Below are positions 25,875 through 46,623 of a stretch of 64,000 nt of DNA, in pieces. The notes below the pieces were generated by a model. It searched no databases and was not told the origin of the DNA. It saw only the letters and a list, made by a program, of their open reading frames with translations. The stretch is from an uncultured Bacilli bacterium (GTDB lineage Bacteria; Bacillota_I; Bacilli_A; RF39; UBA660). Position 1 is the first letter of the stretch. Every line of letters starts with the position of its first letter. The stretch is taken from the NCBI GenBank assembly GCA_934101225.1, contig CAKOQK010000003.1:6186-70185 (forward strand), in the 5' to 3' direction. Both the position numbers and the translations under genes were made by a program.

Positions 25875-26148
25875 ACAACCTTTTCTAAAATATATTTTTT
25901 ACATATTCCAAACATAATTTTTCTATTTGGAATTCATACAAACTAATTATATCATCATTTCATTTTTCAATAAATGATTAAACTCAATAATTATTTAAAT
26001 GCTACATTAAAAATTCTTTATTTACATGTTTTGGGTTGTTAATATTAACACCCCATAATTTACAAATCTATCTATAAATACTACAAAACTAAAATTATAA
26101 TATAAATTTAACAATAACTTTGCTATAATCTATTTGAGGTGAAGAAAA

Positions 26149-27399
26149 TTGAAAATAAATATACAGAAAAAGCCATATATATTAAATAATAAAGACTTTA
26201 GAACAATCCAAATTCAGGTAATGTTTCCTATAAAAATTAAAAAAGAAAACTTAGCATATATTAATATTCTTCCTAACATGCTACAATTTATGAATAATAA
26301 GTATCCTTCTGAAGATAAATTCTTACTTGCTAATAAAAAATTATATATTTTAAATAGTCATTGTGGATACTCTAGAATTGGATTAAATGGATTCTTTACA
26401 TTTGATATGATTATTCCAGATACTAATTCTCTTAAAGAAAATCTATTAGAAAAACAATTTAGCTTATTTAGTGAAATGATTTATAATCCTTTAATTGAAA
26501 ATAATTGTTTTACTTCATTTGAACTAGAAAAAGAAAAGAAAAATATCCTTTTCGATATTGATAATTCATTAAAAAATATTGGTACATATCAAAATTTAAG
26601 ACTTAAAGAAATCATTGATGAAGATAATATATTATCATTAAATCTTACTAGAAATACTGATTTAATTGAAAAAGTAACACCTAGTAATCTATATAAATAT
26701 TATAAAAAGATTATTATTGATAATTCCCCTATCATATTTGTAATGGGTAATGTTGATGAAAATAAAATAAATAAATTATGTAATAAATATTTATATAAGA
26801 ATTTTAAAAATAAAGAAATTAACATTAAACTTGATCATTTTATGAATACAAGAGATAAATTTTTAGAAGTTACAGAAAATAGTTCTTTTAATAATTCATG
26901 TTTATCTATTGTATATAAAGTAAAGGATGCAAATGAATTTGACTATATTTATTTAAATTATGTAAGAGATATATTAACATCTATTTCTTTAGGATTACTT
27001 AGTAAAACCTTAAGAGAAGATTTAGAAATTGTTTATTCAGTAAAAGTACAACCCTATTCTCGTTATGGATTATTAGAAATTAAAGCATTTATTAATAAAA
27101 ATAATATGGAACTTGCCAAAAATAAAATTATAGAAATAGTTAATAGTTTAAAAAATCCTGAAGTATTTAAAGATGAATTAAATAATTTAATTGAAAGACA
27201 AAGATTAGATGTTATTGAAAAGAAAGATAATAAATTTATTATTTTTGATGATTATATTTCTAGTACTTTAAATATAGATGACACACTTGAAGAATACTAT
27301 GAAAAATATAAAAATATTAGCTCTGAAGATATAAGCAATTTTGTAAATAGATTAGTATTAGATACAATATATTTTTTGAAGGAGAAAGATCATGAATAA
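26149..27399 (+). CDS. M16 (insulinase/pitrilysin) family protein, non-catalytic partner (no HxxEH)
   Basis: 416 aa, TTG start after gaggtgaag. M16-like fold signature regions. 8-nt overlap with the following catalytic subunit. Confidence 0.55.
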   Translation: MKINIQKKPYILNNKDFRTIQIQVMFPIKIKKENLAYINILPNMLQFMNNKYPSEDKFLLANKKLYILNSHCGYSRIGLNGFFTFDMIIPDTNSLKENLLEKQFSLFSEMIYNPLIENNCFTSFELEKEKKNILFDIDNSLKNIGTYQNLRLKEIIDEDNILSLNLTRNTDLIEKVTPSNLYKYYKKIIIDNSPIIFVMGNVDENKINKLCNKYLYKNFKNKEINIKLDHFMNTRDKFLEVTENSSFNNSCLSIVYKVKDANEFDYIYLNYVRDILTSISLGLLSKTLREDLEIVYSVKVQPYSRYGLLEIKAFINKNNMELAKNKIIEIVNSLKNPEVFKDELNNLIERQRLDVIEKKDNKFIIFDDYISSTLNIDDTLEEYYEKYKNISSEDISNFVNRLVLDTIYFLKEKDHE

Positions 27400-28630
27400 T
27401 ATAGAAACAGTTACTTTAGATAATGGTTTAAGAATATTTTTATATAAAGATGAAAGAAGACATAAGACATTTTTTACTTATATAACTTTAGGTGGAGGCC
27501 AAAGAAAAAACTTTATTCTTGATGGAACTAAATATCATTTAAATGATGGGCTTGCTCACATATTAGAACATTATATAGTTGAATGTAATAATAATGGGAA
27601 TTTTATAAAAAAATTAGGTAAAATGCAGATGGACGTGAACGCTGAAACAAGTGATATATATACCGAATACTACTTTCAAGCAGTTGAAAATATTGACATT
27701 GGAATTAAAACAATCCTTGATGCAGTCAATAACGTTAAGTTTAACGAAGAAAATCTTAATAAATTAAAAAAACCTATTATTCAAGAAATAAGAAATAGAA
27801 TGGATAATAAATTTTATCATTTAAATAAAATGGTTATGAATGATGTATTTGGTGAAGAAAATTATATTGATGTTGGTGGAAATATTAAAGATATAGAAAA
27901 TGCTAATATCGAAGAAGTTGAGGCTCTTTACAACGCTTGTTATAAACCAGATAATCAAATTATAGTAATTGCAGGTAATTTTAATAAAGAAAATGTTATT
28001 AATATCATAAAAGACTATTTTATGAATCTAAAAAAAGAGAATCATCATGTTGAAATAATTAAAAATAATTATGTAGATTCTGTATTAAAGAAAAAAGATA
28101 TATTAAAGTTTCCAACTCCTAAAGAATATAGAGAAATTGCATTTAAAGTTAACTGTAGTAAATTTACAAATAAAGAAATATTAGATCTTGAATCATATAT
28201 ATTATGTTTTTTTAGTACATTTTTTGGAGTAACTTCAACGCTTTATAAAGAATTAATTAAGAAAAATATCATCACTGATATAATGAATTGTGATATGAGA
28301 AAAGTAGATAACTACTTTCTTATAACTATTGGTAACTACACAACGAATGGAGATATTTTATCTAAAAAAATTATTAACACTATTAAATCTATGAATAAAT
28401 TTAATACTACAATATTTAATTTAAAAAAGAAAGAATTTATATTAAAACTAATATTAAGAGATGAAAATATATTTAAAATGATTAATCCATTTATTACTAA
28501 TGTAATTATTTATGATTATCCATATATTGATACATTAGAAGATGTTTACAATTTAACATATGAGAAATATGTTGATACAATTAAAAGTCTTGATTTTAGT
28601 AATTATACTGATATAAGTATCATAAATTAA
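27392..28630 (+). CDS. M16 family zinc peptidase, catalytic subunit
   Basis: 412 aa with inverted zinc motif HILEH (GLAHILEHYIVE) near the N-terminus. Confidence 0.7.
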   Translation: MNNIETVTLDNGLRIFLYKDERRHKTFFTYITLGGGQRKNFILDGTKYHLNDGLAHILEHYIVECNNNGNFIKKLGKMQMDVNAETSDIYTEYYFQAVENIDIGIKTILDAVNNVKFNEENLNKLKKPIIQEIRNRMDNKFYHLNKMVMNDVFGEENYIDVGGNIKDIENANIEEVEALYNACYKPDNQIIVIAGNFNKENVINIIKDYFMNLKKENHHVEIIKNNYVDSVLKKKDILKFPTPKEYREIAFKVNCSKFTNKEILDLESYILCFFSTFFGVTSTLYKELIKKNIITDIMNCDMRKVDNYFLITIGNYTTNGDILSKKIINTIKSMNKFNTTIFNLKKKEFILKLILRDENIFKMINPFITNVIIYDYPYIDTLEDVYNLTYEKYVDTIKSLDFSNYTDISIIN

Positions 28631-28632
28631 TA

Positions 28633-28660
28633 AAGAAGAACACAAAAGTTCTTCTTTTAA
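28633..28660 (+). terminator. rho-independent terminator after M16 pair
   Basis: aagaagaac acaaaa gttcttctt followed by tt(c)tttt. Confidence 0.5.
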
Positions 28661-28687
28661 TATGCATTTTCCTTGTTGTTTTAACTA

Positions 28688-29077
28688 TTATAAACACTTA
28701 TTTAATTCTTTTTCTAATTTAAGTAATAATTCTTTATCTTTATCTCTATTTAAAAGTTTTTTAACATTGTAGCAATCTCTTAAAGAAGCAACTTTATAAC
28801 CATTTATATATACATAATTATTTGGGCAAAAATCAAAGCTAAAATTTATTACATCATCTATCATAAAAGCCTTATTTCCAAATTCATTTATTCTATCAAA
28901 TTCACAATTAAAATTACTTAATAGATATTCGTAATAATCTTTTGAAACCCAAATATCAATGTCATGAGTTTAATTACTAAAATTTTGTAAAACTAAAGCA
29001 GCTCCAGTTATAATAATAAATTTATCTTTATCTAAATTATAATTATTTAATGTCGTTATAATATCTTTTTTTATCAT
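28688..29077 (-). pseudogene. minimal nucleotidyltransferase-fold protein interrupted by in-frame TAA
   Basis: Minus-strand frame MIKKDIITTLNNYNLDKDKFIIITGAALVLQNFSN * THDIDIWVSKDYY.... Contains G[GS]x..DIDI, the NTase hallmark. TAA at plus-strand 28972-28974. The frame continues to the stop at 28688. Confidence 0.4.
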
Positions 29078-29204
29078 GTTTTACCTCTATTCTTATATAT
29101 AAATAAAATTAATCAATTCAAAATAAACTATATCAAATCTATAATGAAAATTCAAATATACAATTACCATCTTTCTAATATTTCCAATAAAACAAAAAGA
29201 CTTT

Positions 29205-30137
29205 ATGGATAAAATATGGTACAATTTTTTTGGTGATAATATGAATTATGATACTATAAAATCTACTAGTGATGGTTTAAATCTATCTATAGCTTACAGT
29301 TTACCTAAAGGTAAAAGTAAAGGAATTATTCAGTTTTCTCACGGAATGGCTGAACATAAAGAAAGATACTATCCTTTAATGCAATATTTATCTGATAATG
29401 GTTATATATGTATAATTCATGATCATAGAGGTCATGGAAAAAGTATAAAATCTAATAATGATTTAGGCTACTTTTATACAAAGGATATTAACTACATAAT
29501 TGATGATTTATTTAATGTAACTTGTTATGCTAAAAATAAATTTAATAATTCAAATGTATATTTATTTAGTCATAGTATGGGTACTCTTGTTGCTAGAGGT
29601 TATATTCAAAAATATGATAATCAAATAAATAAACTTATATTATGCGGAGCACCAACTAAAAATAGTTTGAGTATTATTGGCTTATCTATTGCTTATATTT
29701 CAAGTATATTTAATTATCATAAAAAAGATAATATTCTTGATTATTTAACATTTAATAGTTTTAATAAAAATTATGATTATAAAAATGCTTGGCTTTCTAA
29801 AAGTAAAGATAATGTTATTAATTATAATAAAGATAATTTATGTGGTTTTACATTTACAACTAATGGATTTATTAATTTATATAAATTACAAATTAATGCT
29901 TTTAAGAAAAAATTATATAATTGTAACAACAAAGATTTAAATATATTTATGATTGCTGGAGAAAACGATCCTGTTATTGGTAATATTAATCTTTTTAATG
30001 ATTTAAAAAAGTTTTTATTAAATATTGGCTATAAGAATATCGAAAGTAAATTATATAAAGATTTAAGACATGAAATTCTTAATGAAGAAAATAATAAATT
30101 AATTTATCAAGATATATTAAATTTCATCCAAAAATAA
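29205..30137 (+). CDS. alpha/beta hydrolase (lysophospholipase/monoacylglycerol lipase-like)
   Basis: 310 aa with HGMAEH, GHGKS and a nucleophile elbow FSHSMGT. Confidence 0.7.
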   Translation: MDKIWYNFFGDNMNYDTIKSTSDGLNLSIAYSLPKGKSKGIIQFSHGMAEHKERYYPLMQYLSDNGYICIIHDHRGHGKSIKSNNDLGYFYTKDINYIIDDLFNVTCYAKNKFNNSNVYLFSHSMGTLVARGYIQKYDNQINKLILCGAPTKNSLSIIGLSIAYISSIFNYHKKDNILDYLTFNSFNKNYDYKNAWLSKSKDNVINYNKDNLCGFTFTTNGFINLYKLQINAFKKKLYNCNNKDLNIFMIAGENDPVIGNINLFNDLKKFLLNIGYKNIESKLYKDLRHEILNEENNKLIYQDILNFIQK

Positions 30138-43567: not shown

Positions 43568-44392
43568 TTAATCCTTCTTATATCTAAATAATCTAGATGG
43601 CCTATGTCCTTCACCAGTTTTATAATCATCCGTTGCTTCAACCTTATTAGCAATAATTCTTCTAAAAGCAGGATCTAGTAATTTCTTATTAAGAATAACC
43701 TCATAAACTTGTTGTAACTCTCCCAATGTAAACTCCTTAGGCATCATATTAAACACAATATCTGTATACATTATCTTATTTTTTAATCTTTCAATTCCAG
43801 ATAAAATAACTAACGCATGATCAAACGCTAAATCATTATTTTCAACTATTTCAAACTTATATCTATCAGTTGTTTTATCTTTTAATATCTTCTTAATTCT
43901 AGTTTTTAATACATCTTTACCATTATCAAGAATAATTGTAACAATTTCATTTTCCTCTTTAACACTAACATTAAACCAAGAAGCATTTTCCATTAGTTTA
44001 GTATTTAATCTATTTTTATCAATTAATGCCATATAAGCAGTTGAAACAATACGCATTCTAGGATCTCTATGAACATCACCAAATGTATATAATTGTTCTA
44101 AATAAATATTATCTAAATTAGTTTCTCTTTTTAATATCCTATTTGGAGCATCTTCTAAGTCTTCATGTACATCTAAAAAACCTCCTGGTAAACACCATTT
44201 ATCCTTAAATGGATAATCATATCTTTTAACTAATAATATACTCATATTTTTTTTTGAAGTTTTACGATAATTATCAACCTTTTCATTTGCAATTGAAATA
44301 ATTAATATATCAGTTGTTAATGATAACTTTTCAAATTTACTTGAATCATAATGTTTTAAAAATTCTTCTTCACTTTTATACATAATTAGCAT
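43568..44392 (-). CDS. nrtR: NrtR-like transcriptional regulator (N-terminal Nudix domain + C-terminal winged-helix)
   Basis: 274 aa (or 271 aa if the start is at ATG 44383, which has better SD spacing). Degenerate Nudix box (GGFLDVHEDLEDAPNRILKRETNL) followed by a roughly 100-aa wHTH-like C-terminus. Adjacent to the NAD salvage operon. Confidence 0.65.
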   Translation of the reverse strand: MLIMYKSEEEFLKHYDSSKFEKLSLTTDILIISIANEKVDNYRKTSKKNMSILLVKRYDYPFKDKWCLPGGFLDVHEDLEDAPNRILKRETNLDNIYLEQLYTFGDVHRDPRMRIVSTAYMALIDKNRLNTKLMENASWFNVSVKEENEIVTIILDNGKDVLKTRIKKILKDKTTDRYKFEIVENNDLAFDHALVILSGIERLKNKIMYTDIVFNMMPKEFTLGELQQVYEVILNKKLLDPAFRRIIANKVEATDDYKTGEGHRPSRLFRYKKD

Positions 44393-44475
44393 CTCCTCTT
44401 ATTAACAATTTAATTATATCATATTTAAAAAGAAAACACGATATTTTTTAATTATGAAATATCGTGCATTTTTTC

Positions 44476-44505
44476 TTGACCTAACATCTAATAATTTGGT
44501 ATTCT
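44476..44505 (+). promoter_or_regulatory. promoter of small-peptide module 1 (TTGACC-18-TGgTATTCT)
   Basis: -35 at 44476-44481, TG-extended -10 at 44497-44505. Duplicated almost exactly at 44849-44878. Confidence 0.5.
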
Positions 44506-44574
44506 ATTACCTAAGGAACATTTAATTGTTTAGGTGATTACCTCTATTCTTTTTTATAGAAAGAGGTGATAGTT

Positions 44575-44670
44575 GTGAATAAGAAATTATTATATTTTAT
44601 TTTAATTAATTTATTTATAATTATTTTTATTTTATTCTATATTATTATTAAAATAATAGTGTTAAAATAA
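44575..44670 (+). CDS. 31-aa hydrophobic peptide (VNKKLLYFILINLFIIIFILFYIIIKIIVLK), candidate type I toxin-like
   Basis: GTG start 5 nt after SD gaggtga. The SD lies inside an imperfect hairpin (ggtgattacctct...agaggtgat). Followed by two 3' hairpins: 44717-44739 (cacttaa/ttaagtg, T-run 44744-44749) and 44755-44773 (atgtaag/cttacat). Confidence 0.4.
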   Translation: MNKKLLYFILINLFIIIFILFYIIIKIIVLK

Positions 44671-44848
44671 AAACCACCATAAACAGGGGGTTTTGTGAAA
44701 ACTACAAAAAGGTAATCACTTAACATCCAAAATTAAGTGTTCCTTTTTTATTTTATGTAAGTCTTCCTTACATATTCATACTATCATATTTTTAAATTAT
44801 CTTCAAGATGTTAATTAGTTCAAATATGAAATATCGTGCATTTTTTTC

Positions 44849-44878
44849 TTGACCTAACATCTAATAATCTGATATTCT
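44849..44878 (+). promoter_or_regulatory. promoter of small-peptide module 2 (TTGACC-18-TGaTATTCT)
   Basis: -35 at 44849-44854, extended -10 at 44870-44878. Confidence 0.5.
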
Positions 44879-44948
44879 ATTCCTTAAGGAACATTTAATT
44901 GTTAGTGTGATTGCCTTTTTTCAAACATTATTGAAAGAAGGTGATGTT

Positions 44949-45083
44949 ATGAGCAAGAAAGATTGCTTAATTTTTATCTTACTTATAATTATCATATTAT
45001 TAATAGTAGTTATCTTGTCTAAAACTACTACTAATACAAAAATTTCACCTAACACAGGGGTGTTTTGGTGTTTTTTCCTATAA
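44949..45083 (+). CDS. 44-aa hydrophobic peptide (MSKKDCLIFILLIIIILLIVVILSKTTTNTKISPNTGVFWCFFL), candidate type I toxin-like
   Basis: ATG preceded by gaaggtga inside a hairpin-prone region. Single TM helix with a polar C-tail. Followed by two 3' hairpins: 45091-45114 (cacttaa/ttaagtg, T-run 45120-45125) and 45131-45149 (atgtaag/cttacat). Confidence 0.4.
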   Translation: MSKKDCLIFILLIIIILLIVVILSKTTTNTKISPNTGVFWCFFL

Positions 45084-45216
45084 AGGTAATCACTTAACAT
45101 TCTCCAAATTAAGTGTTCCTTTTTTATTTTATGTAAGTCTTCCTTACATATTCATATTATCAAATTTTAATAATTTGTACAAGTATTACTAACGTAATTT
45201 CATACATTAATAAATA

Positions 45217-46623
45217 TTAAACAAGCTCCTTTAAAGCCTTTTTAAGTTTATCTAACATCTCAACAATCTCTTCTTCACTTTTAGCAAAAGTAAATCTTCC
45301 AACCAATTCATACTCATTCGGCCAAGCAATACTTTTTCCAATTAAATATCTTAAATTAATTTTTTTATATAAATAAATCAATAAATCTTCATCAGAATTT
45401 ATTATTCCATCTTTATAACGTTTACCCTTTAATGCAGTAAAATCAAGTAAAATAAAGAATCCCGCCTTAACATCACATTTAATTTTAACACCATCTATTC
45501 CCATATTTATATCATAATTAGAAGCATATCTTTTAATAGATTCAACCACTCTATTACGATATTTTTTATCACAACAATTAATTCCCATAATCATAGTCTT
45601 AAATAAATTATAACGATACTTATATTCTTCTCTTAACTTACTAAAATATTTGTTATATTCTATCTCACTACTGCCAAACGCCCCAGCAAGAGCCTCACCA
45701 ATAATTGCTGGCACTGCATCTATTTCTCTAAATATTTTATTAACAATCTCTCTAATAATTATTTCATCTGCAACAACAAATCCAGCTCTTAAACTTGCCA
45801 TCCCATAAGATTTCGAAAGACCAAATAAAGATATCGTATTTTTAAACATTCCACTTAAACTAGCAATAGGTTTAGCAATATCATTATCAAAACATATATC
45901 ACGATAAATTAAATCATCAATAATAAACATATTATTATCTTTAATAACCTTGCCAAGTTCTTCTAATCTATCTTTATCTGATTCACCCATATAATTACCT
46001 AAAGGATTATTCGGATTACTATTTAAATAAGCAACAACCCTAGGAACATAATTTAAATCTTTATATTTAACCCTAAGTTCATCATTAATCTCTTTAATTT
46101 TTCGTTCTAACATCTTTGGATTAATCAAATAATTATCCTCTTCTAATAAAGGAACAACAAGAGTATTAACATTTAATCTTTCCGGTTTAAAAGTAAATAA
46201 TCCGTAATTAGGAGCAGTAGTTAAAATAACATCATAAGGTCTTGCTATTATATCAATAACATAATTAAAAGCCTGACTAGTAGAAACACACATCGTTAAA
46301 TTATTTACCGATAAGCCCTTATTATCAATATCTTCATAATTATATACATCATCATTCCTAATTCCTATTTTTTCTACATAATCAAGAAGAACTTTCCTAA
46401 CCCTATCATCACCCTCAGAATAAGGATATTTATATAACTCATTACCATGAATGTACCTATCTAGTCTTTTAATAACTTCCGGATAAGCATCATAACATAA
46501 TGGATTTCCACTTGTAAAATTAATATCTTTTTTACTATCATATAAATTATTTAAAATATAATCATAAACCCTGAATCCATCTTCAACACCTTTAACATAT
46601 TTAGAAAAAGGTTTATTATCCAT
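45217..46623 (-). CDS. PLP-dependent aminotransferase (class I/II)
   Basis: 468 aa with a PLP-lysine region FGLSKSYGMASLRAGF. Confidence 0.65.
   Translation of the reverse strand: MDNKPFSKYVKGVEDGFRVYDYILNNLYDSKKDINFTSGNPLCYDAYPEVIKRLDRYIHGNELYKYPYSEGDDRVRKVLLDYVEKIGIRNDDVYNYEDIDNKGLSVNNLTMCVSTSQAFNYVIDIIARPYDVILTTAPNYGLFTFKPERLNVNTLVVPLLEEDNYLINPKMLERKIKEINDELRVKYKDLNYVPRVVAYLNSNPNNPLGNYMGESDKDRLEELGKVIKDNNMFIIDDLIYRDICFDNDIAKPIASLSGMFKNTISLFGLSKSYGMASLRAGFVVADEIIIREIVNKIFREIDAVPAIIGEALAGAFGSSEIEYNKYFSKLREEYKYRYNLFKTMIMGINCCDKKYRNRVVESIKRYASNYDINMGIDGVKIKCDVKAGFFILLDFTALKGKRYKDGIINSDEDLLIYLYKKINLRYLIGKSIAWPNEYELVGRFTFAKSEEEIVEMLDKLKKALKELV

Follow-up and report, generated by a model that had tools for sequence, protein, structure and literature searches.

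The DNA analysed here, a window of 64,000 nucleotides from contig CAKOQK010000003.1 of an uncultured Bacilli bacterium (RF39; UBA660), has a G+C content of 24% and carries almost every gene on the minus strand. The intergenic gap that separates nrtR (43568-44392, minus strand) from a class I/II aminotransferase gene (45217-46623, minus strand) contains two direct modules (44437-45216), placed head-to-tail with a spacing of 372-376 bp, their flanks being 88-100% identical and their centre diverged. A preliminary description of this gap had already recognised the two copies and proposed, for each of them, a small hydrophobic peptide on a structured messenger RNA (mRNA) faced by a convergent antisense RNA, i.e. 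an architecture of the fst/txpA/bsrG type. Each module is treated here as a candidate type I toxin-antitoxin (TA)-like unit, and its two predicted genes are referred to as the toxin and the antisense gene. As the window is AT-rich, a T-rich hydrophobic open reading frame (ORF) could arise from composition, and comparative evidence was thus needed.

The entry point to relatives was a word-index search of a protein collection with the 44-amino-acid (aa) peptide of the second module, which returned only two entries (P0001 and P0002), both of them mis-called ORFs. A pattern taken from the conserved 3' end of the modules, TGTTCCTTTTTN{0,3}ATTTTATGTAAG, was scanned over one genome per species and matched 84 blocks, almost all from a handful of uncultured gut metagenome-assembled genomes (MAGs) labelled Bacilli, Tenericutes or Bacillales. 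With a nhmmer profile, 121 module matches were obtained, 109 of which are near full length. They comprise 67 single copies, 21 pairs and 4 triplets; the head-to-tail spacing is 348-386 bp, apart from one outlier at 201. Individual MAGs carry 20, 20, 18, 16, 13, 11 and 7 copies, these counts being lower bounds, as only blocks with an exact match to the pattern were included. Within the 64-kb window, the conserved flank motifs occur at these two sites only, and nhmmer likewise found two copies.

The first small ORF (44575-44670, plus strand) starts with GTG and encodes a peptide of 31 aa, MNKKLLYFILINLFIIIFILFYIIIKIIVLK. Its start is most likely the GTG at 44575, the alternative GTG at 44566 falling within the Shine-Dalgarno (SD) sequence. 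The second ORF (44949-45083, plus strand) encodes 44 aa in the window, while its relatives end after MSKKDCLIFILLIIIILLIVVILSK (25 aa), at a position corresponding to 45024. The two ORFs thus exist as previously described, with one correction as to the second: a 2-nt deletion at 45020-45026, which turns TCTAAATAACT into TCTAAAACT, destroys the TAA stop present in all relatives and adds 19 residues, through the antisense terminator, to a peptide that in all other copies of its subfamily ends after ..ILSK. It is therefore copy 2 that lost a stop, and not copy 1 that acquired a premature one, as had been suggested. The deletion may be either a genuine inactivating or altering mutation or an assembly error.

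As a whole, an ORF starting with M-x-K/R behind a strong SD is kept in 91 of the 99 full-length copies. The search for the conserved flanks in related genomes, which could have uncovered a generic repeat devoid of any ORF, led to the opposite outcome. Six subfamilies were distinguished: A (31 aa, MNKKLLYFI..), B (25 aa, MSKKDCLIFILLIIIILLIVVILSK), C (30 aa, MSKRKFIIKFLRYICFIILCISILVYIVKK), D (26 aa, MRKIDYLILFLIVIIFILLFIIIKLI), E (27 aa, MNKRDILIFFLLIFILLLIILLYIVLI) and F (29 aa, MSKKMLYFIIFNLFIIIFLLIMLLFKVAN), along with more distant peptide forms in L074, L075 and L080. In every subfamily, the peptide has a net positive charge and one uncharged hydrophobic stretch of 16-22 residues, with a maximal 19-residue hydropathy of 2.6-3.8, in line with the basic N-terminus and single transmembrane (TM) helix initially attributed to the two window peptides. 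In the five length classes with enough copies, the synonymous share of the changes is 35-80%, vs. 18-20% expected, and the second codon position is the least variable (31 of 205 changes); both features are confined to the frame of the ORF and are not seen in the other two frames. Judged by this comparison, the ORF is a translated gene under protein-level purifying selection.

The first copy of the window is a member of subfamily A and the second of subfamily B, and each subfamily is conserved across several species and genomic sites. The idea of a duplication followed by drift has to be abandoned: as placed by their relatives, A and B are old, separate lineages. Two minus-strand ORFs starting with MLSDYL (44637-44726, 29 aa, and 44921-45100, 59 aa) were considered as genes and rejected, as they have no SD at a proper distance. 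Their ATG codons sit in the terminator loop, and the conserved hairpin sequence probably gives rise to these ORFs incidentally.

Upstream of each ORF, the near-identical toxin promoters reported earlier at 44476-44505 and 44849-44878 (plus strand; TTGACC, 18-nt spacer, TG-extended TATTCT) were recovered. A toxin promoter is found at a fixed position in 81 of the 84 unique modules, with the hexamers kept while the spacers vary. In 59 of the 62 TG-extended toxin promoters scored, the -10 hexamer ends 8-9 nt upstream of a GGAACA motif, so that the transcript should begin at the paired 5' arm described below. With ends inferred from promoter and terminator, the predicted toxin mRNA 1, of about 240 nt, would extend from 44513 to 44752 (nhmmer match 44511-44749) and the predicted toxin mRNA 2 from 44886 to 45128, both on the plus strand.

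Two structures are predicted in this mRNA, both backed by folding and covariation. The local one is a hairpin in which an anti-SD located directly upstream of the SD pairs with it, i.e. ATTACCTCT with AGAGGTGAT in module 1 (44537-44570) and the corresponding hairpin in module 2 (44910-44945). In a RNAalifold helix built from 24 diverse leaders, five of the nine pairs are compensatory, and the paired probability of the SD is 0.84 vs. 0.61 with shuffled leaders. The SD-sequestering hairpins announced for the two window copies fold as claimed. The second structure, which the preliminary description had not noticed, is a long-distance pairing: the first ~30 nt of the transcript, AAGGAACATTTAATTGTTTAGGTGATTACC, are complementary to the terminator region, GGTAATCACTTAA..AATTAAGTGTTCCTT. 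In module 1, the 5' arm occupies 44513-44542 and the 3' arm, which is also the mRNA terminator hairpin (CACTTAA..TTAAGTG), 44711-44745, with a T-run to ~44752; in module 2, the 5' arm lies at 44886-44915 and the 3' arm with the terminator at 45085-45121.

The folding proposed at the outset shows, besides the pairing of the SD, this closure of the 5' end on the 3' end in the minimum-energy folds of window mRNAs 1 and 2 (z = -7.8 and -7.3, respectively). Over 89 aligned mRNAs, 94.9% of the cells are paired in the 5'-3' alignment, vs. 35-50% when the partners are slid. Double-sided changes affect 10 of the 28 pairs, seven of these being among the 11 pairs of the inner helix. Moreover, G·U combinations largely outnumber A·C ones (235 vs. 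11), which points to selection on a plus-strand RNA and not on a DNA inverted repeat. Covariation is also seen in the terminator hairpin formed by the 3' arm alone. By comparison, the mRNA is a predicted panhandle with an occluded SD, so that both the cis-encoded SD sequestration of type I systems and the 5'-3' closure of the Hok/AapA type were found. A switch in which the 3' arm would compete with the SD for the anti-SD was considered and rejected, the predicted SD pairing being equal with and without the 3' end.

Past the ORFs, the previously listed hairpins with T-run were recovered, and so were the palindrome ATGTAAGTCTTCCTTACAT, at 44755-44773 and 45131-45149, and the promoters on the minus strand, all of them where they had been placed. 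Antisense promoter 1 lies at 44778-44806 (TTGAAG, 17-nt spacer, TG-extended TAGTAT, as TGaTAGTAT) and antisense promoter 2 at 45154-45182 (TTGTAC, 17-nt spacer, TG-extended TAATAT, as TGaTAATAT). Among relatives, a minus-strand TTGnnn-N16-18-TAnnnT is found in 101 of 102 unique flanks, 98 of which have the TG extension. Its hexamers are conserved while the spacer is variable, and conservation falls to background beyond the -35. A further element, missing from the preliminary description, is a hairpin that on the minus strand has a T-run behind it; 93 of 98 modules have one, vs. 13-30 of 98 in shuffles. Since the first hairpin has no consistent minus-strand T-run, the conserved hairpin just past the ORF emerges as the antisense terminator. 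The proposed antisense RNA, convergent with the mRNA and overlapping its 3' end, gains support from this near-universal promoter and terminator.

The predicted antisense RNA measures 104-128 nt (~110), and in most copies its 3' end lies between -7 and +15 nt relative to the toxin stop codon. Antisense RNA 1 (~110 nt) would span 44663-44772 and antisense RNA 2 45038-45148, both on the minus strand. Each would start with the palindrome, folded as a 5' hairpin (44755-44773 and 45131-45149), followed by a middle hairpin and by its own terminator hairpin (44670-44694, where the T-run after the hairpin overlaps the toxin stop codon, and 45046-45070). In the middle hairpin, four of the eight pairs are compensatory, with U·G pairs workable on the minus strand only; similarly, a C·A mismatch on the plus strand of the terminator stem in subfamily C corresponds to a U·G pair on the minus strand. 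The predicted RNA is fully complementary to the 3' untranslated region (UTR), as is characteristic of a type I antisense at the sequence level. No evident terminator was seen between the aminotransferase stop and antisense promoter 2, and the aminotransferase transcript may run into the sequence of antisense RNA 2.

The pairwise identity within subfamily A is 0.96 for the 5' arm, 0.91 for the 3' arm, 0.88 for the ORF and 0.85 for the antisense terminator, vs. 0.44 for the linker that joins the antisense terminator to the 3' arm (44698-44710 and 45071-45084), which is hypervariable even within a subfamily. This low value makes the linker a near-neutral yardstick, from which the other regions stand out. 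Either the linker is a neutral spacer, or it acts as a "barcode" that makes antisense pairing specific to the cognate RNA.

Another element absent from the preliminary description is a quasi-palindromic 12-mer, with consensus AYGAAWWTTCRT, hereafter the dyad. Of 83 unique modules, 60 have it ~10 nt ahead of the toxin -35 (vs. 0.5 in shuffles), and 18 of 78 terminal modules carry a copy ~9-12 nt past the antisense -35 (vs. 0.6 in shuffles). In the window, ATGAAATATCGT is present at 44454-44465, where it forms the right arm of an inverted repeat (44437-44466, with T-run) and precedes the -35 of toxin promoter 1 by ~10 nt, and at 44826-44837, upstream of toxin promoter 2. An inverted copy, ACGTAATTTCAT (45192-45203), is located 9 nt beyond the -35 of antisense promoter 2. 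The dyads of the window thereby mark both edges of an insertion, described below, and the junction between the two modules. The dyad may be an operator or a recombination site. A Bacillus-type LexA box was set aside, as its half-site spacing, which we take to be different, does not fit.

As for the genomic setting, the gap belongs to a nicotinamide adenine dinucleotide (NAD) metabolism operon with the order nadE-nadD-pncC-nadK-aminotransferase-nrtR-ung. L022, a syntenic contig found via the aminotransferase, carries the same module pair at the same position, and L026 and L027 have one diverged single module at a different locus, adjoining greA. In distant relatives, whose aminotransferase is 59-62% identical, the distance from the aminotransferase stop to the nrtR start is only 50 nt (L112:4497-4548) or 22 nt (L114:4494-4517), and the L112 spacer aligns with window positions 44393-44436. 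These short spacers and this alignment indicate that the 780 bp at 44437-45216 are an insertion in a compact operon. No conserved partner gene was found beside the modules, the contexts varying from greA in L027 to nrtR in the window.

Degenerate copies were also observed. Four of them (L055:2587-2760, L103:3470-3640, L052:2020-2180 and L109:6620-6740) have kept the antisense half only, without toxin promoter, 5' UTR or start codon. In L092:5520-5640, the toxin promoter is fused to the 3' part, the 5' UTR and ORF being deleted. The degenerate copies look like orphan antitoxins, and antisense-only remnants are what would be expected if loss of the toxin is tolerated while the antitoxin is kept.

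Taken together, these data suggest the following course of events. A sigma-70-type promoter with an extended -10 would yield a mRNA of ~240 nt encoding a peptide of 25-31 aa, in which a basic N-terminus is followed by a single TM helix. In this mRNA, the upstream anti-SD would pair with the SD, and the first ~30 nt with the last ~35 nt, in the terminator region; the resulting panhandle would stack on the SD hairpin and hold the mRNA closed. This 5'-3' lock most likely protects both ends of the mRNA and keeps it inert. From the convergent promoter beyond the mRNA terminator, a ~110-nt antisense RNA would be made, opening with a 5' hairpin, continuing with one that is complementary to the mRNA terminator and closing with a terminator of its own. 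Ending at the toxin stop codon, it would be perfectly complementary to the entire 3' UTR, with which it would pair, probably beginning loop-to-loop at the terminator hairpin. Such pairing would displace the 5' arm and destroy the lock, and the ~100-bp duplex would be a substrate of RNase III, so that the mRNA would be removed and the peptide kept off. When made, the peptide would insert in the membrane and harm the cell.

The modules were compared with known type I systems. Toxins of this type are small (<60 aa) hydrophobic peptides with a predicted alpha-helical TM domain (PMC8309996), a description that suits the 25-31-aa peptides. In Gram-positive type I families, the antisense RNA lies on the 3' side, and the determinants compiled in T1TAdb for toxin mRNAs comprise SD/anti-SD pairs, 5' stem-loops, terminators and 5'-3' long-distance interactions (PMC8594479). 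On bsrG, the action of SR4 starts from the 3' end, and both SR4/bsrG and RatA/txpA form a 3' duplex leading to RNase III-dependent decay (PMC8309996, PMC8594479). The modules resemble bsrG/SR4 and txpA/RatA by their small hydrophobic peptide, by a convergent antisense that overlaps the toxin mRNA at its 3' end, by a partly or fully sequestered SD and by this mode of action, which is the one to be expected for them. They differ in that their peptide and RNA sequences are unrelated and in that the predicted overlap ends close to the stop codon: in TxpA/RatA and BsrE-G-H, the antisense on the 3' side also overlaps the ORF (PMC8594479), whereas the 3' end of the module antisense barely touches it. 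Besides, the 3' region targeted by the module antisense is also the partner of the conserved 5'-3' lock. We know of no such lock in the bsrG/SR4 or txpA/RatA families.

Closure of the full-length mRNA from 5' to 3', with an occluded SD, is shared with hok/Sok and aapA1/IsoA1 (PMC8594479, PMC6733600). Unlike in the modules, the antisense RNAs of these two systems bind the 5' part of the mRNA, and the anti-SD of hok acts from the 3' end. In the modules, the anti-SD is local, the antisense would bind the 3' arm, no leader ORF lies between transcription start and SD, and the sequence is unrelated to either system. With Fst/RNA II (par, pAD1) and SprA1/SprA1as, the modules have in common a peptide of ~30 aa, convergent genes at a shared terminator hairpin, a SD-sequestering 5' stem-loop and a short antisense. 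However, in Fst/RNA II and SprA1, the interaction takes place at the 5' translation-initiation region outside the overlap (PMC8594479), where the module antisense is same-sense and cannot pair in this way. The APxxxG motif of Fst is also absent from the aligned module peptides, and neither Pfam Fst_toxin nor NCBIfam gave a match.

By sequence, the modules are not members of any known type I family; their layout is of the Gram-positive type, with a lock as in hok/aapA1. Of the architecture proposed at the outset, the layout is thus supported by ~120 copies, while membership of fst, txpA or bsrG by sequence is not. Database searches agree with this. A search of the peptides against type I toxin families matched no family in Pfam or NCBIfam, and the 31-aa peptide had no match in an exhaustive HMMER search of 1.84 billion representative proteins. 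No match was obtained by blastn in plasmid and phage collections, and no peptide string was found by full-text search of a library of papers. A pattern scan of viral_contigs gave 21 matches, all of them by chance and without further similarity. The modules appear to constitute an undescribed and highly multiplied family, each member of which would carry a membrane peptide of 25-31 residues on a tightly folded mRNA.

That each module is a type I TA-like unit is the interpretation we favour, with a probability of about 0.7, as a candidate pending toxicity. At the sequence level, comparison among the copies establishes that the peptide is encoded, that the mRNA has its two structures and that the toxin and the antisense gene each possess a promoter and a terminator; the architecture is well supported in this sense, toxicity and transcripts being predictions. 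Several observations weigh against this interpretation. All support is comparative or predicted. In Rfam, no family reached gathering scores over the whole window, and only chance matches were seen at E <= 10 in 44400-45220; in Pfam and NCBIfam, 10 peptide variants gave chance-level matches only at E <= 10, the single type I toxin model among them being HokA (E = 0.49). Where the mRNA 5' arm is concerned, the antisense RNA is alike in sequence and not complementary, so that it cannot directly block the ribosome-binding site, and the SD is predicted to be paired with or without the 3' end, so that these folds do not account for the onset of translation. Finally, a mobile repeat would be expected to show the same multiplication (at least 20 copies per small genome) and the same insertion at new sites.

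Many bacterial small membrane proteins of 25-35 aa are non-toxic, and all the comparative results bear on expression control and coding, not on toxicity. The modules might therefore encode a harmless small membrane protein, for instance one that tunes a membrane complex, with the antisense RNA as an ordinary control in cis and without forming a TA pair. This explanation is nevertheless unlikely: at least 20 diverged paralogues per genome, tandem arrays, a double mRNA lock and antisense-only remnants are typical of type I loci and not of housekeeping proteins, and no partner gene is conserved beside modules whose contexts differ. The numerous copies at unrelated intergenic sites, the insertion of the window pair relative to L112 and L114 and the dyads at the module borders would rather recall an intergenic repeat spread by mobility or recombination, like miniature inverted-repeat transposable elements (MITEs) or repetitive extragenic palindromic (REP) sequences, with inverted repeats as DNA-level ends and with incidental ORF and promoters. 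MITE-like repeats have terminal inverted repeats, a target-site duplication and no selected coding, whereas the repeat of the modules is internal, not terminal, and specific to one RNA strand, tolerating G·U and not A·C (235 vs. 11). The ORF is under protein-level purifying selection, the promoter hexamers are kept while the spacers vary, and neither transposase nor target-site duplication was seen. We consider a mere repeat very unlikely. Mobility and TA function are not mutually exclusive, and the border dyads may permit spread by a site-directed route of some kind.

The antisense half is the best kept part of the module and survives alone in several degenerate copies, and its promoter and terminator are near-universal; the main product could on these grounds be a ~110-nt minus-strand small RNA acting in trans, with the sense transcript as a decoy or sponge and an untranslated ORF. 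Against this stand the coding signature of the ORF, its strong, well-spaced SD, start codons conserved across subfamilies and the presence of an intact ORF in 91 of 99 copies; as estimated from composition, a frame would stay open over 30 codons with a chance of ~6% at 24% GC. This makes an RNA acting in trans most improbable. Starting again from the TA-like unit, the observations might be joined into a single, rather doubtful picture, in which a self-spreading set under central regulation, with at least 20 paralogous modules in each reduced genome, would have each module bracketed by the dyad AYGAAWWTTCRT, bound by a dedicated protein (regulator or recombinase); the 3' arm would be a switch relaying antisense binding to the 5' end, be it for stability or for translation, and the hypervariable linker would give each paralogue its own cognate antisense.

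Elsewhere in the window, positions 26001-30000 are the only part with positive or neutral GC skew and have the lowest G+C content (0.20-0.21), which suggests a block of plus-strand genes or foreign DNA.

With at least 20 copies per MAG, the family ranks among the most multiplied genetic elements in AT-rich uncultured gut Bacilli/"Tenericutes" MAGs, and the dyad upstream of its promoters suggests that toxin transcription is regulated. The combination of a hok-like 5'-3' lock with an antisense overlapping the 3' end, as in Gram-positive systems, raises the question of how a 3'-bound antisense can control a ribosome-binding site 200 nt off, a question for which ~120 natural variants provide covariation data on every helix. 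At the scale of the genome, the insertion into a compact NAD-metabolism operon means that the modules reshape operons in reduced genomes.

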